Source: a phage. Taken from it: DNA of 64,000 bases. The translations under genes were made by a program, and so were the position numbers. The stretch lies in sequence record PX418213.1; one strand, given 5' to 3'. Shown piece by piece: positions 3,842 through 64,000 of this stretch (positions within the stretch are counted from its first letter, which is position 1; each line of letters opens with the position of its first letter). The notes below the pieces were generated by a model. The model was not told the origin of the DNA, did no database searches, and saw nothing but the letters and a program-made list of their open reading frames with translations.

Positions 3842-6628
3842 GTGTTCTCAATCCTACAAGGTCATGCAGGATTTCATCGCGATTTAGCCACAGGCAATTG
3901 GCGAGAAGTTAAAGCAGAAGACTATCTTTTTGCTAAAAGATTTTCCTCAAAGCATCCTGAAGGTAAACCAGCTTCAATGCCCTTCAAGTTTGATGTAATT
4001 GATGAAGTTGATCCTCAAACCCTAGTAGAAATGCTTCCTCTTATGAGACGTTTAACGTCTGACCCTCATATCGTTGCGGTACGAGGTCGATGTCTTGCAC
4101 CTAAAAATAATGTGCGACGTAAGAAGGGCAACTTTAATATATCTAACCCAAGTCATATAATTGCAATGGACGTGGATGGTATTGTAGATACAGGTGGTTG
4201 TAACAAGTTTGATCTTGTTGGCATGGCTCGACATATTATTAGAATGTTAAATAGTATTAGTGAGGATATGTTTCCTCTTGATGCAGGGTTTATTGCTCAT
4301 GCATCGTCTTCGGCTGGACTAAAACCAGGTATCCGAATGCACTTAATACTAGAATCTAATGTTAAAGTAACTCAGGGTCAAATCAAATTCTTATTTACAT
4401 CTATCAACGAAAGTAGTAGACAAAAGTATGGCTTTGATATTGCCGACTTAGCCTATTACTCTTCCGTACAGCTCCATTACTTTGCAGATCCGTTATTTAT
4501 CGATGGTATAGTAGATCCGTTTAAAGCGGAGGGTGCTTCACGTCTGGTATTTGTTAAGGGTTCTAAAGTAAATTTACCCAATAATCTGGTTGACTATGAA
4601 ACAACTAGGGGTGAGTTTAAAGAGGAGTTTTACTCTTTACTCGATCAAATTAAAGGTAAAAAAGCTGCCTCTGATAAAGTAGAGGAAACTATCAGCGAAC
4701 TAGAAGAAGCTGAGGATGGAGTGTATCTACGTATCATACCTAAACTCTATCACAGAGCTTTAGAGGATGGTGTTGACTTTGCATGGCTAGAAAAAGAAAT
4801 CCGTCCAGCCTTATCAGAGTATATTGCAACTAAAGATAATAGTCGTAATATTCAAGATTACTTTAATAACGGTCGTAAACAGGCTCTGAAAGCATTTGTT
4901 AATAATTCTAAACGTGATATACCGGATGTTTTAAAAGGTATTCCACTTAAAAAACTAGAAACTAATTCTCTAGAAACTGATAACTTCTTGAAATTAAATA
5001 CTGTACCACCAGAAGGTTATATGACTTTTGTAAAAGCAAGTCTAGGTACAGGTAAAACTACAGCGGTTGTGCGTTGGTTAGACTCAGGAGTTATTAAAGG
5101 TAATTTCTTAGCAATTACCAATACTAGAGCGCTAGTATCTTCAAATGCTAAGAAATTTAGTGCAGGACAATATGATAAGTCTGTAGATATGCTTAATTTT
5201 AAGCGTGGTGCTATTGACCGTATGTCCACAACTATTCACTCTTTGCATAAGTTCAAGAGTTTTATTGGTCAAATTGATGCAATCTTTATCGATGAATGTG
5301 ATGCTGTAATGAATGACCTATTATTCGCCCCGGTTGTTAAACAACGTCGTGAATGTATTCAGGTTCTTCGAGACATTCTTGCAACTGCAAAAATCATTAT
5401 ATTATCTGATGGGGATATTAGTGCAGAAACAATTGAAGCATATGGTTCTTTGATTGAGTTTGATAAACCGGTTGCATTTTATAATCATCACCGTAAAATG
5501 CTATCAAAAGCTCATGCTTATGAGTTCCCGGATGAATCCAGTATTTGGGTTGCACTTCAGACTTCTCTAGAGATGGGTGAGAAATCTATCCTAGTATCTG
5601 ACTGTGGGCCGGATGAACTGAATGAGAAGGGCATGGCATTACGTCGTAATACGGGTGCGTTAGTTAAGGAAATCCACTCAAACTCTACGTCTGATGTAGA
5701 TATTCGACGTATTCTGGATTACACAACTAATGAGCTAATTGATCAACAAATTGATTGCTTATTATGTAGTCCATCGGTAACAAGTGGTGTTGACTTTAAC
5801 TACTTTGATAACGTATTCGTTATTACTAGAACCTCAAACCAAGCGCCAAACATGCGTTTCCAAGCAATCAGGCGCGACCGTGGTGCTCAGAACATTTATT
5901 ATTTTATTGATAAATCTACGAGTGGGTTCTCCGCAGGTTCTGAGCAATATAACATTGATGAAGGTTGGCTGGAGTTAGCACAGCAATTATACGCACGTCG
6001 CAGGGAGCTGGAATCTAGAAACTATACTAGTACTCTACGTTATTACTTGCTTGATCAGGGTGCAACTATTGATATTTTCAGTGAAAGCTGGGGAAATATC
6101 GAAGGTGCAGGAAAAGAGTATACGGAAGAGCGAATCAAAGCTATTTTGTATTCAACTCCTGATTATTGTGCTCCACGCCATGCAGATGCGTATGAAGCTA
6201 AACTACTTCTTGTTCGCTATTACCATCTTGAGTCTATTAAAGATGTAACAGTTGAGCATGTTGAACAATATATCAAAGATAAACCGAATGATCGAGCTGC
6301 ATTCTTCCATAAGATGCACGAGATGTTCTGGGAAGATATTAAGAAGTGTTCAAATGTCACTATCAAACCCTTTATAGAAGCTCTGAAAGGTAAGAAGAAA
6401 GATTTCTTCCTTAAAACAGGTCAGAGTGCTAACCCAAAATATGCGAGAATGTATCTTGGTATGATGGGTATTGGCAAGGATATGAACACGGAGAATATTG
6501 TAGACTGGTACAGAACCTATTGTAAAATCGAGTGTATGCCAATCCCCCTAAAATTCATGACAGAGGAAGAGAAGGCCATGGCAGAAGAAGTAATGTCCGA
6601 ACTTGGAGCAACCAATGAAGATACATAA
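3842..6628 (+). CDS. large helicase-domain protein (possible replication initiator or origin-binding helicase)
   Basis: Walker A ASLGTGKTT and DExD-like box IFIDECDAV; start refined to in-frame GTG 3842 preceded by AGGAG at 7-nt spacing (ORF track starts at 3764). Confidence 0.5.
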   Translation: MFSILQGHAGFHRDLATGNWREVKAEDYLFAKRFSSKHPEGKPASMPFKFDVIDEVDPQTLVEMLPLMRRLTSDPHIVAVRGRCLAPKNNVRRKKGNFNISNPSHIIAMDVDGIVDTGGCNKFDLVGMARHIIRMLNSISEDMFPLDAGFIAHASSSAGLKPGIRMHLILESNVKVTQGQIKFLFTSINESSRQKYGFDIADLAYYSSVQLHYFADPLFIDGIVDPFKAEGASRLVFVKGSKVNLPNNLVDYETTRGEFKEEFYSLLDQIKGKKAASDKVEETISELEEAEDGVYLRIIPKLYHRALEDGVDFAWLEKEIRPALSEYIATKDNSRNIQDYFNNGRKQALKAFVNNSKRDIPDVLKGIPLKKLETNSLETDNFLKLNTVPPEGYMTFVKASLGTGKTTAVVRWLDSGVIKGNFLAITNTRALVSSNAKKFSAGQYDKSVDMLNFKRGAIDRMSTTIHSLHKFKSFIGQIDAIFIDECDAVMNDLLFAPVVKQRRECIQVLRDILATAKIIILSDGDISAETIEAYGSLIEFDKPVAFYNHHRKMLSKAHAYEFPDESSIWVALQTSLEMGEKSILVSDCGPDELNEKGMALRRNTGALVKEIHSNSTSDVDIRRILDYTTNELIDQQIDCLLCSPSVTSGVDFNYFDNVFVITRTSNQAPNMRFQAIRRDRGAQNIYYFIDKSTSGFSAGSEQYNIDEGWLELAQQLYARRRELESRNYTSTLRYYLLDQGATIDIFSESWGNIEGAGKEYTEERIKAILYSTPDYCAPRHADAYEAKLLLVRYYHLESIKDVTVEHVEQYIKDKPNDRAAFFHKMHEMFWEDIKKCSNVTIKPFIEALKGKKKDFFLKTGQSANPKYARMYLGMMGIGKDMNTENIVDWYRTYCKIECMPIPLKFMTEEEKAMAEEVMSELGATNEDT

Positions 6629-7133: not shown

Positions 7134-7350
7134 AAAATGGGAAACAAGGAAGTTCCCAGTAAAAGAACGTAAAGTTCCTGCTTACAACACTTCGGAAAAG
7201 CTATGTAGGGTGGTTCCTGCTAGACTAGCTGGCATCCCTAACATATCCGAGTGGTTACTTAAACAACGGAAAACAAACGTGTCTCTTCGCATCGGCTTTG
7301 AGTTAGATAAAGTCTATGCTGAACTTGCTTCTTTGCTCAAGGAATCGTAA
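7117..7350 (+). CDS. hypothetical small protein (about 77 aa)
   Basis: In-frame ATG 7117 preceded by GGAGAG; the ORF track version starts at 7006 inside the HNH gene. Confidence 0.35.
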   Translation: MTVKNKKWETRKFPVKERKVPAYNTSEKLCRVVPARLAGIPNISEWLLKQRKTNVSLRIGFELDKVYAELASLLKES

Positions 7351-7358
7351 AAATTTAT

Positions 7359-7387
7359 TTGCTTTCAGGAAAATTTTTCTGTATAAT
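7359..7387 (+). promoter_or_regulatory. strong sigma70 promoter, N25 type
   Basis: TTGCTT, 17 nt, TATAAT, AT-rich upstream, leader cataaatttgagagaggag then ATG 7419; the block 7350-7418 matches the canonical T5 N25 promoter as I recall it. Confidence 0.75.
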
Positions 7388-7418: not shown

Positions 7419-8123
7419 ATGGCTGGTTCTCGCAGAAAGAAACATATCCATGAAATCCCTGATGAAGTCTTTAAAAAGGTTATAGAGCATCTGGAGAACG
7501 GTGGTACTAAGAAAGCAGCATGTGAAATGCTCGGCGTATCATCCAATCCAACTATGGAAAGGATGATTGAGGAGTGGCAAGACCGCCAGATCCAAGTTGC
7601 CGAAATGAAGAAAAAGAAACGCGGCACACTTATTGAAGGCATTGAGTTAGCTAACGTTATTGAGCAGTATTTATCTGGTGATTCTTTCGAAGAAATTGCC
7701 GATCGTAATTACCGCTCTGTAGCAATGGTTAAATCTGTTCTGGAACGATATGGTGCTCTACTTCGTTTGAACGATATTGTAGATCCATTGAATCCTCCAA
7801 TTATTCCTGATGATGCTGTAGCAGAAGAATTTGCAGTTGGTGAGCTTGTTTGGGTTCCTGGATACCAGTGTATTGGTGAAATCAAAAAAGCAATGGATAA
7901 TCCTGTTGGTTGCTATCGTGTATGGCTTCTATCAGAAGGCAAACAACAGAACGTCCATTATATGAATTACGAGCTGGCTTCTGTTAAACATCTGGAAAAA
8001 TTAGGGGTTGACGTAAAATCTCTAGGGTACAAGTGGACTCGTGAAGAAGTAATTTCATTAATTAATGAAGCTGTTAAGGCTGCCTTGAAACTTGATAAAG
8101 AAAAAGGAAAACGCCGTGAGTAA
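7419..8123 (+). CDS. putative helix-turn-helix DNA-binding protein (234 aa)
   Basis: First gene downstream of the N25-type promoter; HTH-like segment TKKAACEMLGVSSNPTMERMI. Confidence 0.4.
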   Translation: MAGSRRKKHIHEIPDEVFKKVIEHLENGGTKKAACEMLGVSSNPTMERMIEEWQDRQIQVAEMKKKKRGTLIEGIELANVIEQYLSGDSFEEIADRNYRSVAMVKSVLERYGALLRLNDIVDPLNPPIIPDDAVAEEFAVGELVWVPGYQCIGEIKKAMDNPVGCYRVWLLSEGKQQNVHYMNYELASVKHLEKLGVDVKSLGYKWTREEVISLINEAVKAALKLDKEKGKRRE

Positions 8124-8881: not shown

Positions 8882-8917
8882 TTTTTAGATAAATCCACCA
8901 ACAAAAGGAACACAGTT

Positions 8918-9214
8918 ATGACCAAAGCTGAAATTATCGCACAATGTGAAAAATTTGGTGAGTTTTATCTTCATTACGAGAAACTTCGTCAGAAAGGAAC
9001 CACGTACCTTCAGGGTACGATGGAATTTGATCCAGCCCAAGATAAATATCTGGCTGAGCGTATTAAACGTGAACGTATTCGTAAAGCGAAAGATGATGAG
9101 ATCCTTGTCTTCTCTCGTACTAATGATAGCTTCCGTTTTATTCCTGTCGAGAAAGTCCGTCGTGTGACTAGCCTCCAATCAGAGTTAGATCGTGCTTCTC
9201 CAGTAGGCCGATAA
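8918..9214 (+). CDS. hypothetical protein (98 aa)
   Basis: ORF track; AAGGAA upstream; terminator downstream. Confidence 0.45.
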   Translation: MTKAEIIAQCEKFGEFYLHYEKLRQKGTTYLQGTMEFDPAQDKYLAERIKRERIRKAKDDEILVFSRTNDSFRFIPVEKVRRVTSLQSELDRASPVGR

Positions 9215-9264: not shown

Positions 9265-9573
9265 ATGAGCGAACAGGTAAATCAAAACTATGAAGGACAC
9301 GTTGATGACCAGTCCATCATACTCTGGGAGAAGGAGGGAGAACAAATAAGATTAACAGTATCTGAATTTCGTGGGAATCTATACATGGGTATTCGTTACT
9401 GGCTTCTTGATATTAATGATGAATGGTTTCCAACGAAATCTGGCTTCTCTTTTCCTTACACCCTAGAAACAACATCACAGCTTTTCTATGCGTTTACACA
9501 GATTCTTAGCGAATCTGAGGTTTTACATGAAGTACAGAAACGAGCTGAAGAACTCAAAGCCAAGAATGCCTAG
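9265..9573 (+). CDS. hypothetical protein (102 aa)
   Basis: ORF track; flanked by terminators. Confidence 0.45.
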   Translation: MSEQVNQNYEGHVDDQSIILWEKEGEQIRLTVSEFRGNLYMGIRYWLLDINDEWFPTKSGFSFPYTLETTSQLFYAFTQILSESEVLHEVQKRAEELKAKNA

Positions 9574-53501: not shown

Positions 53502-53630
53502 ATGTCAAACAAAAGAAAGAACAGACGCGGAGAAGTGTATGAAGCGTGGATTAATATTTACGGATTTGGTTTTGTATTATTCCTAATCTTCGTGGGTTTT
53601 TGGTTAGCAGCTATGGCGGGGTGGATTTAA
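53502..53630 (+). CDS. small single-pass membrane protein (array member 1)
   Basis: MSNKRKNRRGEVYEAWINIYGFGFVLFLIFVGFWLAAMAGWI; ORF track version starts at 53439. Confidence 0.35.
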   Translation: MSNKRKNRRGEVYEAWINIYGFGFVLFLIFVGFWLAAMAGWI

Positions 53631-54321: not shown

Positions 54322-54432
54322 TTTGACTTTTGCCAAATTTCATAAGATTACACATGGAGGTGTGTCCAGTGGGTTGGGAGAGAATACTTAGTCTGCTAAC
54401 CGCCACCCCCGTTACTATTACCATGCTAAATG

Positions 54433-54471
54433 TTTCACCCTGCAACCATTTTAATTGCAAGGTGAAACAAT
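54433..54471. other. hairpin between convergent genes
   Basis: 14-bp stem with one mismatch, gtttcaccctgcaa / ttgcaaggtgaaac. Confidence 0.3.
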
Positions 54472-54485
54472 TTCAACTTTAATTA

Positions 54486-55262
54486 TTACGCGACTTTTAG
54501 TTTCTCAATATATTGTTGCGGGCTGCAACTATATTCTGCGCGTTCTTCTTCTGTCATACTTTCCCAACATAGTTTTAAGCGATCGGCTAGGAACTGATAA
54601 TCATTATCATCCTCGAGCGATTCATCAATAAAGGTTCCGCCTATCAATGCCACGCCGATTGATAGAATATCATTAACGGCTTGCGCGTCCAACGTTTTAA
54701 ATCCGTATGATGCCGCCGCTGATAATACACCTTTATGATCATCAATCATTGTAAAATCAGCGTTCGGGTATAGCTGTTTAAATAATCCAAAGTAGTAACT
54801 TTTATATACTGCGTCCTTGCTGTGGTATATTTCGCTAACCTTATCAGCTTCAAAATATTTGTGCAGTGTATCGCGGGAAAATACACGGATATTACTATCC
54901 CCACGCCCGCGCAAGCCTTGCTTGCGTAGGAAGTAATAATCTGATTTGCTCATCAGGCGAGCGGTACAAATAAGGTTTAAGGTATTTGCGTCATTCATGC
55001 ATTGGCGCATATATTCAACTAATGGTAATAAGGTGTCTTGCATTATTAAATGATGCTTGCAAGCCTCGTTTTTGTATTTATTTAAATCTAAATTCCCGTC
55101 GCTATCAAAGCAAGGCGCTACGCGATGGAATGAGTTAACGATAGTGCCATCAAGATCCCAAATCATGACGCGGGAAACATGAGGAAAGCTACGGGTAATA
55201 TTCGTTTTAACTTGATTCATTTTGTTACGTTCTCCATTAAAGGGATGTAGTTTATCCAGCAT
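54486..55262 (-). CDS. dmp: HAD-family phosphatase, likely deoxynucleoside 5'-monophosphatase (dmp-like)
   Basis: HAD motif I VMIWDLDGTIV; sits in a pre-early-like block next to an A1-like gene. Confidence 0.5.
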   Translation of the reverse strand: MLDKLHPFNGERNKMNQVKTNITRSFPHVSRVMIWDLDGTIVNSFHRVAPCFDSDGNLDLNKYKNEACKHHLIMQDTLLPLVEYMRQCMNDANTLNLICTARLMSKSDYYFLRKQGLRGRGDSNIRVFSRDTLHKYFEADKVSEIYHSKDAVYKSYYFGLFKQLYPNADFTMIDDHKGVLSAAASYGFKTLDAQAVNDILSIGVALIGGTFIDESLEDDNDYQFLADRLKLCWESMTEEERAEYSCSPQQYIEKLKVA

Positions 55263-55300
55263 TGCCCGCTATCTATCAGCGGGCAATAATAAATCAACTA

Positions 55301-55693
55301 TTAAAGACCAAAGGCCAGCGCATCAGCGATAAAACTAATATCTTCTCCTGATACGTGGGAACGAATGCCCGCGCATGTAAATACCTTCGCGCTCATTAGT
55401 TGATCATCAAGACAAGCCGGACAAGGCGCGACAACTGCAAACGCTAGGCCGGATTTCACGGCGTCGATGATAATCGTTTCCTGCTTCACCGTATCAACAT
55501 AAACGCCTGCGGCCTTGATGTGACTACTTGCGCGGCCTTGCGTATAGGCGAAAGTCGTGATCTGCAGCGCCTCGTTAAACTCGAGTAAATCATCAACAAC
55601 GTGACCGGCCTCAACGTGATACCGCTCCCCATTAGAATAAACCAGAACGATTGAGGATTGAGCGCGATCGAATGGAATATTTTGCTTTTTCAT
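55301..55693 (-). CDS. hypothetical protein (130 aa)
   Basis: ORF track; contains HVE and PCPAC motifs but with spacing atypical for cytidine deaminases. Confidence 0.35.
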   Translation of the reverse strand: MKKQNIPFDRAQSSIVLVYSNGERYHVEAGHVVDDLLEFNEALQITTFAYTQGRASSHIKAAGVYVDTVKQETIIIDAVKSGLAFAVVAPCPACLDDQLMSAKVFTCAGIRSHVSGEDISFIADALAFGL

Positions 55694-55760
55694 AGTTATA
55701 AAACTCCAATTAATTTAATAAGGGAAATAAGCGAGGTATATACCCCGCTTATAAATTTAA

Positions 55761-57446
55761 TTATGCGAAAAACTTACCGTTTTTAAAGTCAATCAAAGTG
55801 CGCTGGCCGTTCGCATAGGTAATTAAATGCGTTTGCGTCCAGCTTGACGCGCCAACGTTATAGCCCATATCTAGGGAACCAGCAACGCCCGCCGTATATA
55901 CGCCGCCGTAAATGCTGGCGGTGTGAGTGTGCCCCGTGTTTAACTTGCCCAATTTCTTAAACTGCTTAGGATTGCCACGGCTGCCGTTTATGCCGTTGTG
56001 ACCGTGTACGCCGCATTCAATGCCTGCAATCTTGAAAGATTGATCAGTCGTTAGGAAAATCGCGTTAAACTCGCAACCTGCGACGGTACGCAGCGCATAA
56101 TCTAGCACGTTGAAAGTATCATCCTGCCTTGCAATAGCTGCATAGATAGCGGCATTCAGGCGGTGATATAATTCCGCGTTTGCTGGATCGTCTTTAATGT
56201 TAGCATTGCGATCATCAAGCCAACGGGATAGCGCCAGATCGTGGTTTGATTCCACAATGATTGTTTGACTAAAATCACGTTCCATTGATTCCAGCACGCG
56301 CCCGGTATCGATGAGATCATCCAGAACCTTATCACGTCCGGCTGCATACTGTTTCGCTAGAAATACACCAGAAGCGCGGTTATGGTGGTTGCGCGATGTA
56401 AAATCATGCACGTCATGCACAAATTGATATTTTGGCTTGAGAATATCCACTAGCCCATAAGTATCACCGTGCCCCCATGACGCTGCGGCGCACTCCTCAT
56501 CAAGTTTTTCGGCGTGTATGTCGCCATATTGCAAGCCTAAAACATGCCCCGACGTTTCAAAGCATCCGGTGGGAGTAGCGCAAACGTTCAGATCGTAAAA
56601 CATGCCGCTTTCGTCCATCGTTTCAAGCTGGCGCACAAAAAACTCACCGTCTTCGTCGAACTCAACAATCAGCGCACCGAAATTATGCAATGCTTCCGCT
56701 TTCTGTCCTGCTTTCTGCTGAATGTAGTTTTTAAGCGTTGCCGTTCCGGTGGAATACATGCGGCGCACTACTTCACCTTTGAGAGCTGGCACGCTTTCGG
56801 CGGTGATTTTAGCGTGACCAATTGCCAGACCTTCCAGATTAAGCGCGGTTGCAGTTTCTGCGAATCCAGACAGCGGATAGTCTGCGGTGGGCAAAACATT
56901 AATTTCAGCCATGAAAGCGAAACGGCGGTTATTTAAAAACACGTTTTTACTGCAAATATATTTATCAAACGCGGAATCATATTTGATTCCGTCTGCGCCT
57001 TCCCCATTCTGGAATCCGTTTTTATTATAAATATACTTGCTAACCAGCAAATCAGCGCCGATAAATTGGGCGTATTGCTCCAACGCGGCTAAAAAGTTTT
57101 TATGCGGGAAAGTATTATTTTGAATCGACGTTAGAATAAAGCGTTTACCTTGTTTTACTTCCCACTGTTCCACCGTGCTAGAAATAATTCCAGCCGCTTC
57201 GGGGCGCTCGTCGTTTTTAATGGCTTTTGCTACTTTCGCCGCTTTTGGTTTCGCTGGTTTATTTGCTTCCAGCCAATCACAAATCGCGGTGGAGTGTTTT
57301 GCAGTATCGTAAACCGCTTTCGAAATATCGTCACAAACTTCCAGCTTGGTGGCGCGCAGACGTTTACCATAGAAATTAAAGTCAGCGGCCAGCTTCAGGA
57401 TAACGGTTTGCTTTTCTGCGGAAATAATCATAGTAATAAGCTCCAT
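55761..57446 (-). CDS. A1: A1-like pre-early protein with metallophosphoesterase domain
   Basis: 561 aa; calcineurin-like motifs YGDIH, ESNHD, GHxH-like GHTH; adjacent to an A2-like gene. Confidence 0.55.
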   Translation of the reverse strand: MELITMIISAEKQTVILKLAADFNFYGKRLRATKLEVCDDISKAVYDTAKHSTAICDWLEANKPAKPKAAKVAKAIKNDERPEAAGIISSTVEQWEVKQGKRFILTSIQNNTFPHKNFLAALEQYAQFIGADLLVSKYIYNKNGFQNGEGADGIKYDSAFDKYICSKNVFLNNRRFAFMAEINVLPTADYPLSGFAETATALNLEGLAIGHAKITAESVPALKGEVVRRMYSTGTATLKNYIQQKAGQKAEALHNFGALIVEFDEDGEFFVRQLETMDESGMFYDLNVCATPTGCFETSGHVLGLQYGDIHAEKLDEECAAASWGHGDTYGLVDILKPKYQFVHDVHDFTSRNHHNRASGVFLAKQYAAGRDKVLDDLIDTGRVLESMERDFSQTIIVESNHDLALSRWLDDRNANIKDDPANAELYHRLNAAIYAAIARQDDTFNVLDYALRTVAGCEFNAIFLTTDQSFKIAGIECGVHGHNGINGSRGNPKQFKKLGKLNTGHTHTASIYGGVYTAGVAGSLDMGYNVGASSWTQTHLITYANGQRTLIDFKNGKFFA

Positions 57447-57527
57447 TAAAGGGATAAAAAACGTTTGTTATTGGCAAATGTTGCCAAATATAACGCCTCC
57501 AATAATAGGCGTTATAATTTGCAATAT

Positions 57528-57725
57528 TTAACTAATAGGCATCAGGCTAGAACTAACACCGCAAACAACGGCGGCAATAAAACAAATCAGGCCCAAACGC
57601 TTCGCTAACTTAGATTTGCGTTTAAAATAATACGAATCTAAATCATTTTGAAAATATGCGAACAATAACGAGGCCGCCACAATAAATAGGCCTAAAATTA
57701 AGGATTCAGTAGGAAAGAAAATCAT
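57528..57725 (-). CDS. small membrane protein (two predicted TM segments)
   Basis: MIFFPTESLILGLFIVAASLLFAYF...LICFIAAVVCGV; ORF track version 57528..57773. Confidence 0.3.
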   Translation of the reverse strand: MIFFPTESLILGLFIVAASLLFAYFQNDLDSYYFKRKSKLAKRLGLICFIAAVVCGVSSSLMPIS

Positions 57726-57782
57726 TTTAATAACTCCAATTAAAGGGAAATTATAGTGGGGAATAATCCCCACTAATTAAAT

Positions 57783-58190
57783 TTATTCACCTGCGGCTTG
57801 TTTTACCTCATCGGCAACGCCTAACAACTGCGCCACGGCGTCCAGCGTTTCCAGCTTCGCGCTTTCAAGGCTTGCCAGATCATCGGCGTCCTTGATAATG
57901 CCGGAATCGATAGCGTGTTTTGCAATTACTCGCACATAGTGAGCTTTACGGATTGAGCTGCCGCCGCCAACCTTGCGCGGCTTGTCGCTTTTTTGGTAGG
58001 CTTTCGCGCTGGTCAATTTCGAACGAACTGACACGGGAGAAGCCGCACCAACTGCTTTCGCGATCTCTTTCAAGCCGTCGCTATTTGCGAATTCTAGCCC
58101 GTTTTCATTGATTAACTGCTGATACATGGAAACAGCCTGCTGGGTGTTTTCTTCGTTCCAGGAAAATTTTGCGGCTTTAACGTTAGTCAT
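57783..58190 (-). CDS. A2: A2-like pre-early DNA-binding protein (135 aa)
   Basis: Size and position immediately upstream of the A1-like gene; basic C-terminal half. Confidence 0.45.
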   Translation of the reverse strand: MTNVKAAKFSWNEENTQQAVSMYQQLINENGLEFANSDGLKEIAKAVGAASPVSVRSKLTSAKAYQKSDKPRKVGGGSSIRKAHYVRVIAKHAIDSGIIKDADDLASLESAKLETLDAVAQLLGVADEVKQAAGE

Positions 58191-58290
58191 GGTAAAAACT
58201 CCAATTAATTTAATTTAAGGGATTAAATGATTAACTAATGTTAATCGTTATATGCCCCGAACTACTGGGGCATATAAAGTTAACACTAAT

Positions 58291-58542
58291 TTATAAAACG
58301 GCTTCCCATTTTTCGTTGCGTTGAACAACCTTTACAACGTCGCCGGATTTAACGCGAACGTTATAAATCGGCTTGCCGTTGTTACTGCGCTCATTTTCAG
58401 CGTATACCGCGTCGATTGTATCGAACGGCATGAGCGCCGCGCCTTTAATACGTTCGGCTTTTCCGGTCAATTCATCCGTTTTAGTAACGAAAGGAATAAA
58501 AACGGATTGACCAACTTTCGGCGCATTAATAACGTTTTTCAT
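58291..58542 (-). CDS. hypothetical small protein (83 aa)
   Basis: ORF track; first gene of the minus-strand pre-early-like unit. Confidence 0.4.
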   Translation of the reverse strand: MKNVINAPKVGQSVFIPFVTKTDELTGKAERIKGAALMPFDTIDAVYAENERSNNGKPIYNVRVKSGDVVKVVQRNEKWEAVL

Positions 58543-58774
58543 GGTATAAACTCCAAGTTATTTGTGGATTGTTCCGCATTATCTGCTACTTTCTAGCAGA
58601 CAATAAGAAAAAATCCGCTAGCCATTATAAAATCAATTTAAGGAACTCCACGCGGGCCGCTATATCCCAGTTAGGGGGCGGGATGCATTATGGTAAGCAC
58701 CGACCGTCAGATTTTATCAAGTTATCGCTCTTATCGAACTGGGTACATCTTAAAGCCTATCGGCTAGGGTGTCA

Positions 58775-58948
58775 AATAGTTTTTTCGTTTTCTTTTAAGT
58801 TAGGATCTTCCCAACTGAATAGCATTTCGCAAAATATTTTCCCATCTTTATGATGGTAAGCTATTTCACTTCCGTGGTTAGCACAAAAATTAATCACCGC
58901 TTCAGCTTGTTCTACCGTGATATTGTTAGCCGTTTCTTTGATTTTCAT
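58775..58948 (-). CDS. hypothetical small protein (57 aa, absent from the ORF track)
   Basis: ATG at 58948 preceded by AAGGAA at 8-nt spacing; translation MKIKETANNITVEQAEAVINFCANHGSEIAYHHKDGKIFCEMLFSWEDPNLKENEKTI. Confidence 0.3.
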
Positions 58949-59373
58949 ATCGTCGATTCCTTATAATGTAATAAGTTTACCGCCGATAGGCTTTAAGATA
59001 TACCCAATTTTTAAAGAGCGCGGCGGTAAACTTCCCGCCGTGTAGTTCGTCATTGCCGCCCTACGAGATAAATAATAACAAACAACGAAAAAGGCGCAAC
59101 CTTATATTTGTAAAGAAATGTAAAGACAAACGCCACCGGACACCGTGCGGCGACCTGGGCGCAGCGCATTAAAATTAAAAGAAACGGGCGCGCGAATAAC
59201 ACAAAACATAGCAGATAGGCAAGTAATTTTTTCACTTATATTTGCTTTGGGGGTATTGACAAAATCTAAAAAGCTCGTGGCAGCGATAAACGACGTGGCC
59301 CCTTATGATTGGATGGCCAAAAACTTTATTGCGTTCTGGGGCGTTTTAGGCGCATTCTAGCCTTGTTGATAAC

Positions 59374-59834
59374 TTATCCACAGAAGCAAAAATGAAATTT
59401 TCCTAGTTATCCACTTGACTTTTATTTTCCAGTGGATAACTACTTATTTTATGAAATAAATTAATTGACTTTTATTTGCTAGTATGCATCGGAAAGATAG
59501 CAGACTAATAATTGCTAGGATGATGATCATGCTGGTGGATTGTAACGGCCTGAATTATTAGCAGACTGTTAATCAGGGAAAATCTCATTAGCCAACTAAC
59601 TATTTCATGATATATAATATACTTATAAATTAATGAGAAATAATAACTATAAGAAATCATCATCATTATAATAATAACTATAAGAAATCATCATCATTAT
59701 AATAATAACTATAAGAAACTATCGGCATAAGTGAGAACCACTATCATTTAAGTTATCCACAACGTTATCCACAGCACAAAATAATTTGACACGATAGGCG
59801 GCGATATGAGGGCTTTTACACAGACTTATCCACA
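59374..59834. promoter_or_regulatory. cluster of DnaA-box-like 9-mers in an AT-rich intergenic region
   Basis: TTATCCACA at 59374, 59744, 59755, 59826; TTATCCACT / AGTGGATAA inverted pair at 59407 and 59431. Confidence 0.55.
59640..59727. repeat. tandem direct repeat, 31-bp unit, about 2.6 copies
   Basis: ataataactataagaaatcatcatcattata repeated with period 31. Confidence 0.7.
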
Positions 59835-59860
59835 GGTTATCCTACTGTATAAATATACAG
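59821..59860. repeat. left arm of a 40-bp inverted repeat containing a DnaA box
   Basis: cagacttatccacaggttatcctactgtataaatatacag; reverse complement of 63118-63157 with one mismatch. Confidence 0.7.
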
Positions 59861-59956
59861 GGTAAAAAGGCAGTGTTAACGACTGCAATCAATTTTAGGC
59901 GGCCTAAAACGCTTTCTAACGAGCTAAACGCTGCGGGGTAATATTAAAGTAAAGAC

Positions 59957-60003
59957 CCAACACGTCGCCCTGATGGCTTCAGTGCGTCGCCCTGGTGGCT
60001 TCG
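59957..60003. repeat. tandem direct repeat, about 22-bp unit, two copies
   Basis: cgtcgccctgatggcttc / cgtcgccctggtggcttc. Confidence 0.5.
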
Positions 60004-60149
60004 CCGTGTTTTGCTCGTTACTACACCGCTGCGCGGTTAGCATAAAATTAGGCGTTAGGCAAGAAAAATAAAAAAGTAAAATAATCTTTGCCTATGCTAG
60101 AAAATTACCTTTATCATTCACTCACCGATTAACGAGAGGGGCCGAACAA

Positions 60150-61136
60150 ATGAGGCTATATAAACCAGATAACGCAACCGTCTTAAAAGGTGCGCTGCGT
60201 AACCTGCTGGACGGTAGCAGAACAACCAGCATTAAGCATTTTGTTTTCAATATTGAAACTATTCATCAAAACTTTTTTGATGATTATGATGCTTATAATA
60301 TGAATAGTTTTCTACCGTTATATAAGCAAGGGGCAACGCTTGTTTTATATAATCAGGATTATCAATTACTTACTAGTCGGGGGCCGGATACTGATTTCAT
60401 AATAGTAAAAGGCAACACAGTAAAAGCCTATGATACTGGGGCGGGCCTAGAAGTTTTTTCAATAGAAAACTATGAGGCCAATGATAATGATCTTTATGAC
60501 GTAGAAAATTTTCTCGATTCATTTTGGCGTTATTTATCAGTTGGCTGGAATCGGTCGGATTCTGATGGGTATCGTTTTGCGGCTATAATGGCCTTTGATG
60601 ATAACGGTAATTTTTTGCTACCGTCGGAGTTATATAATCGGGTATATGAAGGCGATATTGTTGACGCCGGATTTTCTTTCGAAAGGGAAGAAAGTATTGG
60701 CAATATAGAAAAACATGTTGTAAATTCTAACACTAAAAACGTTCACACTCAAACTACTGAAAACAAAGGAAAAAATACCATGACCAAGATTGCTAACATC
60801 GTTGCCGCTAATAAATCCGCCGTTGTAAACGCTGCAAAACTGGAAGCGGGTAAAATTGCACTAACTCAAATCACGAAAGTAGCGGCTAAAAAAGCACCGT
60901 TCATGATCAGAGGCTATATTGATACGCCGATTGGTCGCGTAGTGATCGCTAACCTGCTGAGTGTAGCGGTTGACCAGTACGCCCCGAGTAACCAGAAAGC
61001 GAAAGCGGTAGCAAGCGCGGCAATGGAAGCGGCTATGTTAGAAATGGTGCAATCTTTTAACATCGCTGAGATGATCGATGAAATGGTAAAAGGTATCGAT
61101 ATTTCTACTTTTACCAATAACACCGAAAACGAGTAA
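60150..61136 (+). CDS. hypothetical protein (328 aa; possibly two fused domains or genes)
   Basis: ORF track; internal ATG at about 60780 preceded by AAGGAAAA starts an Ala/Val-rich C-terminal part. Confidence 0.4.
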   Translation: MRLYKPDNATVLKGALRNLLDGSRTTSIKHFVFNIETIHQNFFDDYDAYNMNSFLPLYKQGATLVLYNQDYQLLTSRGPDTDFIIVKGNTVKAYDTGAGLEVFSIENYEANDNDLYDVENFLDSFWRYLSVGWNRSDSDGYRFAAIMAFDDNGNFLLPSELYNRVYEGDIVDAGFSFEREESIGNIEKHVVNSNTKNVHTQTTENKGKNTMTKIANIVAANKSAVVNAAKLEAGKIALTQITKVAAKKAPFMIRGYIDTPIGRVVIANLLSVAVDQYAPSNQKAKAVASAAMEAAMLEMVQSFNIAEMIDEMVKGIDISTFTNNTENE

Positions 61137-61253
61137 TAAATAATCTAATGTAAAGTTTTGTAAAGGTCGCCTTTTATGGTGGCCTTTTTTGTTATAATGC
61201 CTTTACACCGTTCGAGGACGGTTGAAATTTTCCCAAAATTTTGGAGGCTTAAA

Positions 61254-61484
61254 ATGGTTGCTTTTTCTTCTGCTAGTCATCTTTTCACTGGAAAAGGCTG
61301 GGTATCAAATCGCTGGATCATTCAAGAAATGGTGCAAGAGTACGGCATCGCTAAAACTTATACTACCATACAGGCGCTTTATGATAATGATCAGATTGAT
61401 CAGCAAACGGCGGGCTTTTTACTGGATACCCTGAAGGCGGAGCACTGTACCAAAAAACAAGCGGCCAAAATTATTTTAATGTAA
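61254..61484 (+). CDS. hypothetical small protein (76 aa)
   Basis: ATG 61254 preceded by GGAGG; ORF track start 61176 overlaps the upstream intergenic region. Confidence 0.35.
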   Translation: MVAFSSASHLFTGKGWVSNRWIIQEMVQEYGIAKTYTTIQALYDNDQIDQQTAGFLLDTLKAEHCTKKQAAKIILM

Positions 61485-61492
61485 TCAATAAC

Positions 61493-61511
61493 GGGGGATA
61501 TAATATCCCCC
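61493..61511. other. perfect palindromic hairpin
   Basis: gggggatataatatccccc. Confidence 0.4.
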
Positions 61512-61533
61512 ACTAACTAGGGGAGTATTACAA

Positions 61534-61713
61534 ATGGTTATTTTTCGAGCTTTTTTAGCGGGTATCTTGGGCGCTATTCTTACTCTTTTTGCTACCGCTT
61601 ACGGTATCCAAGATTATTGCGGCTTAGTAGTCACAAAACCTATGGTTACTATTGGCGCGGGTATCGCTGTATTTTCTTATCTGCTGGGCTGCATGACTAG
61701 TAAAGGAGAATAA
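61534..61713 (+). CDS. small membrane protein (59 aa, absent from the ORF track)
   Basis: ATG preceded by GGGGAG; two hydrophobic segments (FLAGILGAILTLFATAY and VTIGAGIAVFSYLLG). Confidence 0.3.
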   Translation: MVIFRAFLAGILGAILTLFATAYGIQDYCGLVVTKPMVTIGAGIAVFSYLLGCMTSKGE

Positions 61714-61715
61714 AA

Positions 61716-61928
61716 ATGATCCGCAACGTTTCTCTTGCACGTTCGAAAGGCTTTGCGCTGGTGGATGCTAACACGTTCGAGCGTCCTGATTGTAAAATTG
61801 AATATGTAGCACGTAATAAAAATGCCTTTCGTGTTACTGAAAAGAAATTCGACAAGCGCGGCAACGTGATCCTTGAAACGGTCAGGCACTTTGCCACCTT
61901 TTACGCTGCGTTTCGTGGGGTACTATGA
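61716..61928 (+). CDS. hypothetical small protein (70 aa)
   Basis: ATG preceded by AAAGGAG. Confidence 0.45.
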   Translation: MIRNVSLARSKGFALVDANTFERPDCKIEYVARNKNAFRVTEKKFDKRGNVILETVRHFATFYAAFRGVL

Positions 61929-62056
61929 AAAGCGTTATTGTTGTTCTCCTTGCAATGGCTGGCGGTTTTATCGCCACCTTATTTAGGAATGACCCCGTTT
62001 CGCTGGGGATCTTTATGCTTTTATCTGGATACCTGATCGGGAGGTTATGCAAATGA
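61925..62056 (+). CDS. small membrane protein (43 aa, absent from the ORF track)
   Basis: ATGA overlap with the previous stop; hydrophobic MKSVIVVLLAMAGGFIATLF. Confidence 0.3.
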   Translation: MKSVIVVLLAMAGGFIATLFRNDPVSLGIFMLLSGYLIGRLCK

Positions 62057-62397
62057 TCATTTACGAGGGCAATCGTTTTGTTGCTAACTGCCGCCCGGCA
62101 TTGTTAGCAAACTATTTAAACCAGCTTTCGCCAGCTTATAAGGGCGTTATTAATATTTATGAGGGCAAGGCGCATTATAAAATCAATGCGGTCGTTGCCC
62201 GTGAACTAGCGTTTCAATTTTTAACCTTCGCATCTTGCGACGTTCAGGTAATGGGTGAGGCATTAATCGCAGAAAATGAGGATGATTTTATTAATATTTT
62301 TCGCAAGATATGCACCGAGCGCCTGATAATGAAAGGCGCGTATATTCAATCCACGGCTGATAGTATTGAAACAGCGTTTCGAAAGGTGGCGCAATGA
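62047..62397 (+). CDS. hypothetical protein (116 aa)
   Basis: ORF track; overlapping start and stop with neighbours. Confidence 0.4.
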   Translation: MQMIIYEGNRFVANCRPALLANYLNQLSPAYKGVINIYEGKAHYKINAVVARELAFQFLTFASCDVQVMGEALIAENEDDFINIFRKICTERLIMKGAYIQSTADSIETAFRKVAQ

Positions 62398-62609
62398 GTG
62401 AAATTACTTGGAATATGTTGCTGAAGGTTAAACGGGTAAAATTAACGCAGGATTTATGGGGAGTAGGTAAAACTGGGGATGTATTCACTGTGTTTAAAGA
62501 CGCCCATCATAGGTTTATAAGAAGGAATAACAATACCGGTACAGCGTTTTATTTAATTGATTTAATCAAATTACATGGTGAGGATATTTTCAAACTAGAA
62601 TATGAGTAA
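62394..62609 (+). CDS. hypothetical protein (71 aa)
   Basis: ORF track; ATGA overlap with the previous gene. Confidence 0.4.
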   Translation: MSEITWNMLLKVKRVKLTQDLWGVGKTGDVFTVFKDAHHRFIRRNNNTGTAFYLIDLIKLHGEDIFKLEYE

Positions 62610-62664
62610 CTATATAATTTTGGCGTATTGCAATGAGATAGCCAACTAATAACGGAGCGTTATT

Positions 62665-62859
62665 ATGAGCAATAAAATTGTTGTAACCAAAACTACTACG
62701 ATGGTAGACGTTTTTTACGTGCCCAATACGCCGGAGAATCGACAAGCGGTTGAGCGTGGGGAATATGATAAAGTGATCTATGATCACGATGGTTATTATC
62801 AGTATTTGGTGGATTCATACGGGGAGGAGGAAAAGATCACGCATCAACTACCTGACTAA
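62665..62859 (+). CDS. hypothetical protein (64 aa)
   Basis: ORF track; last gene of the plus-strand cassette. Confidence 0.4.
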   Translation: MSNKIVVTKTTTMVDVFYVPNTPENRQAVERGEYDKVIYDHDGYYQYLVDSYGEEEKITHQLPD

Positions 62860-63117
62860 TAATCACGGGGCGCAACTATCCGGGAGTGCCCCCAATTTTC
62901 AAACGATAATCATTCTCATTTGACCGCGCTCGCGATGGTTAGCCTGCTAATGGTTCGGGTGTTACGTGTCGCCTTGTGTGATCGTTAGCGTGCTAACTAA
63001 TTTTCAAGCCTCCTCCAATTTTGCCCTTGTTTTAGTATCTCCACCAAAATAAAACGCGTTAGAATGCGTTTGAGAGCGTTTTAGCGGTATATTAGAATTA
63101 TTCACTACATAGGAATA

Positions 63118-63157
63118 CTGTATATTTATACAGTAGGATAAGCTGTGGATAAGTCTG
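63118..63157. repeat. right arm of the 40-bp inverted repeat, with DnaA-box-like sites
   Basis: ctgtatatttatacagtaggataagctgtggataagtctg; further TGTGGATAA at 63207-63215. Confidence 0.7.
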
Positions 63158-63250
63158 TTAATAACGCCTCAAAATGGCTAGGATTCTGTCAAGTCAAATC
63201 GTGCTGTTAATAAGTCTGTGGATAACTTAAATAACAGTGTTTCTCACTTC

Positions 63251-63500
63251 CGTTCTTAAATGAGAATCATTATCATTTGCATTTCACTATCTAACTAATA
63301 ATCATTCCACTTTTTAAATGAGAATCGTTCCACTTCCTGAATAATTTTCGTTCCACTTTCTAAATGATAATCGTTATCATTTGCATTCCTCTTTCTAAAT
63401 GCGAATCATTCCACTTCTTAAATGAGAATCGTTTCACTTTTTAAATGAGAATTATTATCATTCTCATTCCGCTTTTTAAATGAGAATGATTCTTATTATC
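63251..63500. repeat. array of about seven direct repeats with a Fur-box-like palindromic core
   Basis: TTAAATGAGAATC(A/G)TT(A/C/T) units, for example 63256-63274 and 63360-63378; each matches the Fur consensus GATAATGATAATCATTATC at about 15 of 19 positions; an isolated copy at 62905-62920. Confidence 0.6.
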
Positions 63501-63510
63501 ATTCGTATTT

Positions 63511-63534
63511 AGCGCAGGGCAATTGCCCTGCGCT
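63511..63534. other. perfect 24-bp palindrome
   Basis: agcgcagggcaattgccctgcgct followed by TTTT; possible terminator or dimeric protein site. Confidence 0.5.
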
Positions 63535-63537
63535 TTT

Positions 63538-63760
63538 GTGCAAATCCGACATTGCTCCACGGGTGTTACGTGCGGGCGTGTATGTGCGAATCCGACAATT
63601 TTTGGTAGTGTGCAAATCCGACTCGAAAAATTTTTATAGTGTGCAAATCCGACAATGAATTTTTCTAGAAACTCCAGCAATCTCGAACTGCGCATCAATC
63701 CTGTGGAGTATGTGCAAATCCGACATGGTTTTTCTAGGATTAAGATGTGCGAATCCGACA
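63538..63760. repeat. six dispersed direct repeats of a 14-bp motif GTGC(A/G)AATCCGAC(A/T)
   Basis: Copies at 63538, 63584, 63609, 63641, 63712, 63747, spaced 25-71 bp, all in the same orientation. Confidence 0.7.
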
Positions 63761-64000
63761 AGATTTTTGTGACTTCGATGAGAGGGTGTGTGATTGTGTG
63801 AGTTTGAGGAGAAGTTGAGAGAGCGAGTGAAACTTGGGGGAACTGCGAGAGGGGCGCATGTTTGGTGCAGGGCACCTGATTTGCGGGGATTTTGGGGAAG
63901 AGTTGAGAAGATTTGGGTTAATTTGAGATTAGGGGAGATAAAGTAAAATTTTATTAGCAAAATGGGGCAAAATAGCTTGACAAGTGAAAATTTCTGTGGC

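Follow-up and report, generated by a model that had tools for sequence, protein, structure and literature searches.

The non-coding region under study carries one of two mutually inverted DnaA-box modules that are conserved in the terminal repeats of T5-like phages, each of them joined to a LexA-box-like palindrome. The window, by which we mean the whole stretch of 64,000 nucleotides of record PX418213.1 that was analysed, corresponds by alignment to the right end of a T5-like phage genome. DnaA-box modules are already known from T5-type first-step-transfer (FST) DNA, and the region adds nothing fundamental to them and no new origin. The additions are that conservation of the box arrays extends as far as Vibrio and Proteus relatives, in which everything around them has diverged, that a near-consensus LexA-like operator is fused to every array, and that Fur-box-like palindromes lie at the FST shear point. 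Taken together, these suggest that several host DNA-binding proteins, and not DnaA alone, read the stop region. The stop of T5 DNA entry at 8% and its restart have been a question since the 1960s, with a mechanism still called unknown in recent papers, one of them from 2026, and the DnaA-box modules stand first among the cis-acting candidates for the stop, as has already been proposed in print.

Position and gene context

The terminal repeat occupies positions 54363-64000 of the window and aligns collinearly with the left terminal repeat of T5, window position 54363 falling on T5 position 1 and 63999 on T5 10136. By this alignment, the gap of about 0.9 kb at 59236-60149 is identified as the central non-coding repeat block of the T5-like terminal repeat; the region under study maps to 5.3-6.3 kb of T5, and the T5 record AY587007 annotates IRB, IRC, IRD, IRB' and IRD'/IRC' at homologous places. 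The divergent gene sets that had been noticed around the region are A1, A2 and an hdi-family gene on the minus strand and a homologue of T5 gene 011 on the plus strand (Table 1), so that the gap lies inside the terminal repeat, with the dmp-A1-A2 genes running leftward on one side and the pre-early operon running rightward on the other. None of the ORFs inside 59236-60149 matched a PHROG family, and in a scan of the whole terminal repeat no Rfam match reached its gathering score.

The original prediction had linked the region to the T5 injection stop and had proposed alignment to the T5 first-step-transfer DNA as a check. The alignment upholds one part of that link, namely that the region belongs to the DnaA-box repeat region of T5-type FST DNA; it is not the injection-stop region itself, which lies just left of the FST/SST boundary, at about 7.9% of the genome (about 9.6 kb in T5). 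The region aligns instead as the left, promoter-proximal copy (T5 Repeat Regions 1 and 2), and the stop-proximal partner is the segment that we call module B.

Table 1. Coordinates, in the window, of the features discussed in the text.
Feature	Position	Strand	Remark
A1	55761-57446	-	gene left of the non-coding gap
A2	57783-58190	-	PHROG family 'DNA binding protein'
hdi-family gene	58291-58542	-	left flank of the gap
GC-rich 'IRB'-family element GCGTTCTGGGGCGTTTTAGGCGC	59330-59362	+	left bracket of the repeats; counterpart, by alignment, of T5 inverted repeat B
Upstream accessory DnaA-box cluster	59364-59441		head-to-head pair TGTTGATAA-c-TTATCCACA at 59364-59382 and 11-bp inverted repeat
One-mismatch DnaA box TTATCAACA	59364	-	
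Perfect DnaA boxes TTATCCACA	59374, 59753, 59765, 59826	+	
One-mismatch DnaA boxes TTATCCACT	59407 (+), 59431 (-)		
Candidate sigma-70 promoter-like element TAGCCA-18-TATAAT	59589-59618	+	points to module A; 10/12 in consensus scan
Module A (T5 'IRC-spacer-IRD')	59729-59862	+	core of the region
Module A DnaA boxes	59753-59761, 59765-59773, 59814-59822, 59826-59834	+ (all)	
DnaA box TTTTACACA	59814	+	
Module A TTATCC half-site	59837-59845		
LexA-box-like palindrome TACTGTATAAATATACAGGG	59843-59862		adjoins module A boxes
Promoter-like element near module A LexA-like box	59879-59852	-	its -10 lies inside the box
'IRB''-family element (IRB-related copy)	59897-59923	-	right bracket; its T5 counterpart by alignment is inverted repeat B' (6184-6209)
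Doubled GC-rich 18-nt element, then T-run	59963-60016	+	weak terminator-like site
Promoter-like element upstream of gene 011 homologue	60088-60117	+	position of T5 'T5P4'
T5 gene 011 homologue	60150-61136	+	right flank of the gap
IRB-related copy	63060-63084	+	
Promoter-like element near module B LexA-like box	63070-63098	+	just upstream of the box
Module B (T5 'IRD'-spacer-IRC'')	63116-63249	-	inverted partner of module A; adjoins the injection-stop region
LexA-like box TACTGTATATTTATACAGTA	63116-63135		module B
Module B TTATCC half-site	63133-63141		
Module B DnaA boxes	63144-63152, 63156-63164 (TTATTAACA), 63205-63213 (TTATTAACA), 63217-63225	-	
Fur-box-like palindrome array (TGAGAATCATTATCA and variants)	63258-63503		T5 DRC/palE-J repeats at the FST shear point

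The two DnaA-box modules

At least six DnaA boxes, including an inverted and a tandem pair, had been predicted. Between 59364 and 59845, a span of 482 bp, we count eight DnaA-type boxes, where the frequency in the unique part of the window predicts 0.14 (Poisson P = 3.6e-12), with inverted pairs at 59364/59374 and 59407/59431, the latter within the 11-bp inverted repeat AGTTATCCACT-N15-AGTGGATAACT (59405-59441), and tandem pairs with 3-bp gaps at 59753/59765 and 59814/59826. Perfect boxes number six in the whole 64 kb, all of them inside the terminal repeat; the two that lie beyond the region are at 63144 and 63217 on the minus strand. The conserved TTATCCTAC that follows the fourth box was considered as a further DnaA box and dropped, because its match is limited to the TTATCC half.

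Each module holds four boxes in the same orientation, arranged in two pairs with 3-bp gaps whose starts are 61 bp apart, a distance also found in Klebsiella phage KpGranit and Pantoea phage AAS21. Positions 59729-59860 and 63118-63249 form a 132-nt inverted repeat (78% complementary), and module B aligns to T5 9332-9463. Module A lies about 5.4 kb from the start of the terminal repeat at 54363 and module B 500-750 bp inside its right boundary; the two bracket the rightward pre-early operon.

Both module copies were found in all relatives compared. Among 29 unique relatives, 27 have module A free of indels, and the two modules align end to end without indels over 27 + 27 unique sequences. All 40 loci that were found through A2 (65-100% identity) and had sufficient upstream DNA carry the plus-strand boxes of module A and, except for the two copies of one contig (L041/L042) in which they are one-mismatch variants, the minus-strand consensus boxes of module B, the background box density elsewhere in these loci being 0-3 per 10 kb. 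In a tally of 230 boxes, positions 1, 2, 4, 8 and 9 are almost invariant and positions 3 and 5 vary within the DnaA consensus TTWTNCACA; the sole systematic departure is a change from C to A at position 6, and the inner boxes of module B (TTATYAACA) lie outside the published consensus. The two inverted clusters recur in T5-like phages of Klebsiella, Pantoea, Proteus and Vibrio, where A1 identity ranges from 74 down to 31%.

Orthologous modules are 81-99% identical, whereas the two copies within one phage share 73-79%; the copies are thus not homogenising each other, and around a conserved common core each of them keeps a separate spacer. The same figures, together with the copy-specific conserved spacers, rule out DNA-DNA pairing or gene conversion between the modules. 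The parts of the modules outside the boxes, namely the left arm AAGTGAGAAnCACT, a TTGACA and the copy-specific spacers, are as conserved as the boxes, and therefore DnaA is not the whole story.

Palindromes adjoining the modules

LexA recognises SOS operators with the consensus TACTG(TA)5CAGTA. The palindromes that adjoin the DnaA boxes have the SOS-box form CTGT-N8-ACAG with an AT-rich spacer, and differ from the LexA consensus TACTGTATATATATACAGTA by one mismatch at 63116 (19/20) and by three at 59843 (17/20), the chance expectation being 0.00. Their CTG is invariant, their CAG nearly so, and changes are confined to the central spacer, a pattern of variation that fits half-site recognition as in LexA operators. 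Unlike SOS operators, they are not consistently placed over a promoter and are fused to a DnaA-box array, which a LexA-like box adjoins in every distant lineage examined. Promoter-like hexamers stand beside both boxes in PX418213.1, and are not conserved in the relatives from Klebsiella, Pantoea, Proteus and Vibrio. A search for the composite DnaA and LexA pattern matched only contigs of 103-128 kb in IMG/VR and, among 185,579 species genomes, a single 3-kb MAG contig. The Fur-box-like palindromes are clustered beside the right-hand module (B). The preprint of Davison (2020) makes no mention of the adjoining LexA-like operator or of the Fur-like palindromes, and our searches of the literature on LexA in connection with T5, pre-early functions or T5-like phages found nothing relevant.

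Dinoroseobacter phage R5C and Sphingobium phage Lacusarx were chosen with host covariation in mind, as alpha-proteobacterial phages that have A1 homologues and whose hosts' LexA box differs. The context of the A1 homologue in both was unrelated, without DnaA or LexA boxes.

Possible functions of the modules

From the identity, architecture and conservation of the modules we infer protein binding and a role in the pause. Because FST DNA enters before any phage protein exists, the modules would be read by host proteins, and we give an even chance to the proposal that the resulting nucleoprotein complexes take part in two-step DNA transfer. DnaA would almost certainly be one reader and LexA probably another. 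At the inner membrane, their complexes would retain or organise the FST DNA and contribute to setting the pause at about 8%, the two modules possibly being bridged, and A1/A2 would later release it. This mechanism extends with LexA the hypothesis of Davison (2020, bioRxiv 10.1101/866236), who described eight boxes in 25 T5-like phages and proposed a DnaA-membrane stop model; that preprint also refers to Heusterspreute et al. (1987) for a description of the DnaA boxes and to a second FST band at about 5.8 kb, located near IRC. The literature holds that the injection stop occurs without phage protein synthesis, and a 2023 paper on BF23 notes a lack of experimental work on these sites. Against a role in the stop, the stop site is about 3.3 kb to the right of module A, and a protein on DNA already inside the cell would not obviously be able to halt DNA that is still outside. 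It also counts against such a role that T5 ejection pauses in vitro without cytoplasmic proteins.

A bolder version, which we consider very unlikely, takes the 132-bp modules as composite platforms on which host DnaA and LexA dock and which could let the phage sense the state of the host chromosome; in enterobacterial phages the Fur-like sites next to module B would accompany them. On its entry the FST DNA would be locked by LexA and DnaA; A1-driven destruction of the chromosome would then lead to SOS cleavage of LexA and to the release of DnaA from the degraded chromosome, and the altered occupancy of the modules would license second-step transfer. If this were true, the 60-year-old 'injection stop' would gain a molecular timer made of host repressors.

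The modules could instead control transcription, DnaA and LexA repressing, insulating or blocking elongation there and so delimiting the rightward pre-early operon, for example by preventing RNA polymerase, before A1/A2 act, from transcribing past the FST boundary and drawing DNA across it. The bracketing of the operon in every lineage, the promoter-like elements beside both LexA-like boxes, the terminators that the T5 annotation places just left of module B and the dampening of pre-early promoters by A1 reported in the literature are in keeping with such control, which nevertheless seems to us rather unlikely: the adjoining hexamers are not conserved in the Klebsiella, Pantoea, Proteus and Vibrio relatives, the literature places the characterised T5 pre-early promoters at other sites, which overlap hdi or precede gene 011, and module A stands upstream, not downstream, of the gene 011 promoter. 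Were the readers phage proteins, either the dimeric A2 or an A1/A2 nuclease cutting at palindromes, the likeness to DnaA and LexA sites would be only apparent. A2 is a DNA-binding dimer required for second-step transfer according to the literature, in line with its PHROG family; cleavage at palindromes by A1/A2 has been proposed by Davison, and the conserved outer half-sites of the palindrome would fit any dimeric reader. What makes phage readers improbable is the exact match to host consensus (9/9 for the R-box, 19/20 for LexA), its persistence in Vibrio and Proteus phages whose A1 is at 31-42% identity, and the working of the stop without phage protein synthesis.

Non-origin DnaA-box clusters acting through DnaA oligomers are known in E. 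coli as datA and DARS, and the region resembles them in being such a cluster. Decoys of this kind, titrating or remodelling DnaA and LexA and thereby disturbing host initiation or triggering SOS, would profit from high-affinity sites carried by the DNA that enters first. Each entering repeat brings about 8-12 DnaA sites and 2 LexA sites, however, into a cell with hundreds of DnaA boxes on its chromosome and more than 1000 LexA molecules. The region has no IHF core site of the datA/DARS2 kind, its element is carried by a virulent phage that destroys the chromosome, host DNA being degraded within minutes according to the literature, and neither the rigid geometry nor the inverted pairing is explained by titration. 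A decoy is accordingly a highly improbable explanation, and DnaA titration, which the original prediction had offered, may occur but found no specific support. Its other suggestion, that DnaA initiates replication here, at boxes adjoining an AT-rich unwinding element, is scarcely credible. The cluster does adjoin a stretch of 81-85% A+T, a local minimum of cumulative GC skew lies at 58-60 kb, and as in oriC-type origins oriented high- and low-affinity boxes are clustered in fixed register, in two clusters separated by genes. This layout is superficially like the bipartite origins that flank a gene in Bacillus subtilis and Helicobacter pylori. Yet T5 lacks the AT-rich repeat, whose copy number is variable, so that a conserved unwinding element is wanting, and the region has no DUE-type 13-mer within 2 mismatches, no IHF core site and one GATC in 914 bp; its box pairs have a 12-bp period, whereas the arrays of E. 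coli oriC have an 11-bp period. The cumulative GC skew, which had been proposed as a check, was followed in T5 as a proxy genome, where the global minimum falls at 53,630, near the replication genes and a gene annotated 'replication origin binding protein' (homologue at 3842-6622 of the window), and not at the box region; the small dip at 58-60 kb lies where gene orientation changes. Every perfect box of complete T5 sits in the terminal repeats. Electron microscopy, as cited by Davison (2020), mapped origins near the genome centre, and the same preprint points out that replication genes are absent during FST.

Accessory and variable elements

The upstream box cluster is one of two alternative alleles among 17 aligned relatives. 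Ten of these carry the same allele but read TTATCCCCA at 59374, while in the other seven, including SPC35, it is replaced by unrelated, box-free sequence. The alignment of T5 to the cluster covers only 32 bp at its right-hand edge, with no consensus box at this position; boxes similar to the cluster occur in KpGranit and AAS21. The perfect box at 59374 looks lineage-specific or accessory and not like an origin component.

Both repeats that had been predicted are present. The AT-rich 31-bp unit occurs in 2.6 copies with 100% matches and 85% A+T (TRF) at 59639-59718, and is a variable-number repeat: the spacer that holds it measures 56, 88, 104, 120, 150, 181 or 227 bp among relatives, in steps of roughly 31 bp, T5 having the minimum of 56 bp. 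The GC-rich direct repeat comprises 18 nt at a 22-bp period (59963-59980 and 59985-60002, 17/18 identical). Its folding as RNA did not differ from that of shuffled sequences (z = -0.01). Of 18 relatives scored, 15 have the element as a single copy; the one copy in T5 is diverged and falls below the scoring threshold, so that the doubling is private to PX418213.1. The 31-bp repeat and the doubled GC element, too, look lineage-specific or accessory, and neither looks like an origin component.

The candidate promoter that points to module A is conserved in T5 at about 5965-5995, where its counterpart is not among the experimentally characterised T5 promoters named in the literature. Its identity with T5 promoter PH207 was considered and ruled out: the PH207 and PN25 cores are present in T5 but lie in its early region (45,915; 63,156) and have no match here. 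The T5 promoter upstream of gene 011 has been characterised experimentally, and the T5 annotation places T5P4 at 6331-6420.

Compared with T5, the IRC-spacer-IRD segment occupies the same place between the A2/hdi side and gene 011, with the same length of 131-132 bp, the same inverted partner near the repeat end, the same 3-bp gaps within the box pairs and the same total of eight boxes, in a sequence that is 83% identical. Box 2 is complete in PX418213.1 and has a deletion in T5, and PX418213.1 further adds the four-box upstream cluster with its private perfect box, the 31-bp repeat and the second GC element.

A DnaA-box cluster in the terminal repeat

Positions 59236-60149 form a non-coding gap of about 0.9 kb in which no ORF matches a PHROG family. 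The gap separates divergent gene sets, as first described, and contains eight DnaA-type boxes, against 0.14 sites expected in the box span from the unique part of the window (Poisson P=3.6e-12). The predicted 31-bp tandem repeat and GC-rich 22-bp repeat are likewise present (see table). The statistics leave no doubt that the feature is real, yet it has already been described.

The window covers the right-hand end of a T5-like (Tequintavirus-type) genome, the nearest deposited repeats being those of GSP044, SPC35 and SSP1 (~93% identical). In a collinear alignment, T5 position 1 corresponds to window position 54363 and T5 10136, at the end of the annotated 10,139-bp T5 terminal repeat, to 63999. 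Since the terminal repeat starts at 54363, the cluster lies in its right-hand copy. Only a few bases separate the window end from the genome's right end. The terminal repeat is the DNA entering the cell first, known as "first-step-transfer" (FST) DNA. Part names in the table were transferred from the T5 annotation through the alignment; the block carries an HNH endonuclease insertion in T5 but not in the window. The original prediction related the cluster to the injection-stop region of T5. Alignment and annotation bear it out as a T5-type FST DnaA-box repeat, but the copy on the stop side is the inverted partner, IRD'-spacer-IRC' (module B), rather than IRC-spacer-IRD within the gap (module A).

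Coordinates of features in the window and in loci of distant lineages (L043-L047)
Feature	Position	Strand	Remark
Homologue of T5 "replication origin binding protein"	3842-6622		93% identical
PN25-type early promoters	7382, 19564, 19665, 53022		PN25 core exact at 7382
A1	55761-57446	-	left of gap; "DNA transfer protein"
A2	57783-58190	-	left of gap; "DNA binding protein"
hdi-family gene	58291-58542	-	left of gap
IRB (IRB-family element)	59330-59362	+	
DnaA boxes, one mismatch	59364 (-), 59407 (+), 59431 (-)		
DnaA boxes, perfect	59374, 59753, 59765, 59826		TTATCCACA
Promoter-like element	59589-59618		
31-bp tandem repeat	59639-59718		2.6 copies, 100% matches
IRC-spacer-IRD (module A)	59729-59860		
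DnaA box	59814		TTTTACACA
LexA-like box	59843-59862		TACTGTATAAATATACAGGG; 3 mismatches to TACTGTATATATATACAGTA
IRB' (IRB-family element)	59897-59923	-	
GC-rich repeat, 22-bp period	59963-59980 / 59985-60002		
T5 gene 011 homologue	60150-61136	+	right of gap
IRB-family element	63050-63090	+	
LexA-like box	63116-63135		TACTGTATATTTATACAGTA; 1 mismatch to textbook box TACTGTATATATATACAGTA
IRD'-spacer-IRC' (module B)	63118-63249		inverted partner; 132 nt, 78% complementary
Fur-like palindromes	54595-54609, 62904-62918, 63261-63275, 63365-63379, 63446-63460, 63487-63501		
DRD-type 22-nt repeats	63536-63766		five copies, core GTGCRAATCCGACA
Purine-rich (G/A) stretch	63770-63940	+	just before terminal-repeat end
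LexA-like boxes	3583, 7210		L043
LexA-like boxes	3426, 7431		L044
LexA-like boxes	4373, 7911		L045
LexA-like boxes	5165, 8264, 8939		L046
LexA-like box	384		L047
IRB-family element	~7150-7180		L043
IRB-family element	~7880-7910		L045
IRB-family element	~8905-8940		L046

Conservation of the modules

Forty loci were taken from IMG/VR via the A2 protein (65-100% identity). Module A has consensus boxes on the plus strand in every locus with enough upstream DNA, and module B has them on the minus strand in all loci except two copies of one contig, whose boxes there are one-mismatch variants. The modules lie ~1.8-4 kb apart, and the background outside them is 0-3 boxes per 10 kb. The 27+27 unique module sequences align end to end without indels. 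Orthologous modules are 81-99% identical, as against 73-79% between the two copies within one phage, and each copy conserves its own spacer, which means that neither copy homogenises the other and that pairing between them is not required. What the two modules have in common is a set of short motifs. Across 230 boxes, which are not phylogenetically independent, positions 1, 2, 4, 8 and 9 are nearly invariant, positions 3 and 5 vary within the DnaA consensus TTWTNCACA, and the sole systematic departure is C to A at position 6 (TTATCAACA or TTATTAACA), for the most part in module B's inner boxes. Beyond the boxes, AAGTGAGAAnCACT, TTGACA and the right-hand palindrome are equally conserved.

Distant Demerecviridae were reached by tblastn with A1 (identity 74% in Klebsiella KpGranit, 65% in Pantoea AAS21, 42% in Proteus phage 2, 35% in Vibrio D333 and 31% in Vibrio Chazly21). 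All five carry two clusters of boxes, perfect or nearly so, that flank the second pre-early operon, in opposite orientation in four phages and with mixed strands in D333; KpGranit and AAS21 preserve the 61-bp spacing of pair starts.

A LexA-like box in each module

The textbook LexA box is TACTG(TA)5CAGTA. A LexA-like box, corresponding to T5 "palindrome D", stands at the operon-proximal end of each module; the chance expectation for such matches in 64 kb is 0.00. CTG never varies among the module variants and distant lineages, CAG hardly does, and variation is placed in the central spacer. Every distant lineage examined has CTGT-N8-ACAG no more than tens of bp from a DnaA array, although no LexA-like box was scored alongside the second Chazly21 cluster. 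Exact matching of a composite pattern (LexA-like box, TAG, 5-14 nt, GTGGATAA) found only 103-128 kb contigs in IMG/VR and, among 185,579 species genomes, a single 3-kb contig of a "Clostridia bacterium" MAG (RZZU01000077.1, 3,015 bp), where T5-like phage DNA was probably binned with the MAG. This restriction marks the composite as a phage-family signature rather than a locus borrowed from a host. The Davison preprint (10.1101/866236) does not mention LexA or SOS, and the searchable literature contained nothing relevant linking LexA to T5 or T5-like phages; we claim no priority.

Accessory parts of the block

The 31-bp repeat is a variable-number tandem repeat that fills the spacer between the promoter-like element and module A. 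This spacer measures 56, 88, 104, 118-120, 150, 181 or 227 bp among relatives, T5 having the minimal 56 bp without the repeat. The GC-rich element, with neither an RNA-structure signal nor an Rfam match, scores as single-copy in 15 out of 18 relatives and is doubled in the window only; T5 has one diverged copy, below the scoring threshold. The upstream cluster (59364-59441) is an accessory part, one of two alternative alleles among 17 aligned relatives. Ten carry it, all with TTATCCCCA at the position of the window's perfect box, and seven, including SPC35, have unrelated, box-free sequence. T5 aligns only at its right-hand edge and has no consensus DnaA box in this stretch; boxes like those of the cluster also occur in KpGranit and AAS21.

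Possible roles

Davison 2020 (10.1101/866236) attributes the first mention of DnaA boxes in IRD'-spacer-IRC' to a 1987 paper, which a 2026 paper gives as Heusterspreute et al., Gene 52:155. Davison described eight boxes in 25 T5-like phages, as 3-bp-gapped pairs with two pairs per module, and proposed that membrane-bound DnaA gripping them causes the injection stop; the same preprint mentions an unexplained second FST band at ~5.8 kb, near IRC. A 2023 BF23 paper says that experiments on the boxes are lacking, and the 2026 paper treats the boxes as a proposed component of a still-unexplained mechanism. The element is thus already known, with a function that is still only proposed.

A DnaA-dependent replication origin, as originally proposed, is highly improbable. 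The gap has no DUE 13-mers within 2 mismatches, no IHF core site and one GATC, and its AT-rich stretch is dispensable; no origin-like feature other than the boxes is either present or conserved. In a T5 proxy genome assembled from positions 1-121,000, perfect TTATCCACA boxes occur in the terminal repeats only, the remaining ~101 kb holding just eight scattered consensus singletons. The proposed skew analysis places the global cumulative GC-skew minimum of T5 at 53,630, beside replication genes and near the gene for an annotated "replication origin binding protein" (59,615-62,401), while the window shows at 58-60 kb a small local dip coinciding with the gene-direction switch. Davison 2020 (10.1101/866236) also deemed an origin unlikely, because origins had been mapped close to the middle of the genome and the replication genes have yet to enter the cell.

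Injection stops without protein synthesis (Davison 2020, 10.1101/866236), so the module DNA would act before any phage protein, and the conserved motifs are exact matches to host consensus sites for hosts as far apart as Escherichia and Vibrio. The box arrays are therefore very likely read by host DnaA, and the palindrome plausibly by LexA, judging from the motifs. The main rival, in which the modules control or block transcription around the rightward pre-early operon, seems unlikely. Promoter-like hexamers adjoin both LexA-like boxes in the window; distant relatives do not conserve them, which leaves a classical operator role unproven. Readers encoded by the phage (A2, or A1 and A2) rank below it as a slim prospect, given action ahead of phage proteins. 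The best-supported role, to which we give an even chance, is that of Davison's model: a cis-acting nucleoprotein complex assembled on the modules would serve two-step DNA transfer, module B sitting at the stop and module A partnering it. The doubt concerns mostly role, not identity. Architecture and conservation are direct observations, from which the rest is reasoned. Conservation throughout the family, the LexA-like operator and the Fur-like palindromes add modestly to the published picture and give future experiments a sharper focus.

Other elements of the repeat

A GC-rich element of the IRB family, GCTTAGAAtCGnTTCTAGAGCGTTYTAGG, precedes the LexA-like box; still recognisable in Proteus and Vibrio phages, it may serve as one more site for protein binding. 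Fur-box-like 7-1-7 palindromes (TGATAATnATTATCA with <=2 mismatches) number seven in the window, against 0.83 expected, six of them in the terminal repeat. Four are grouped immediately to the right of module B, where the shear point of T5 FST DNA lies. The 3' end of dmp contains a perfect copy, likewise perfect in T5, SPC35 and KpGranit; the Vibrio phages have none. The DRD-type repeats sit between module B and the terminal-repeat end, followed by the strongly purine-rich stretch.
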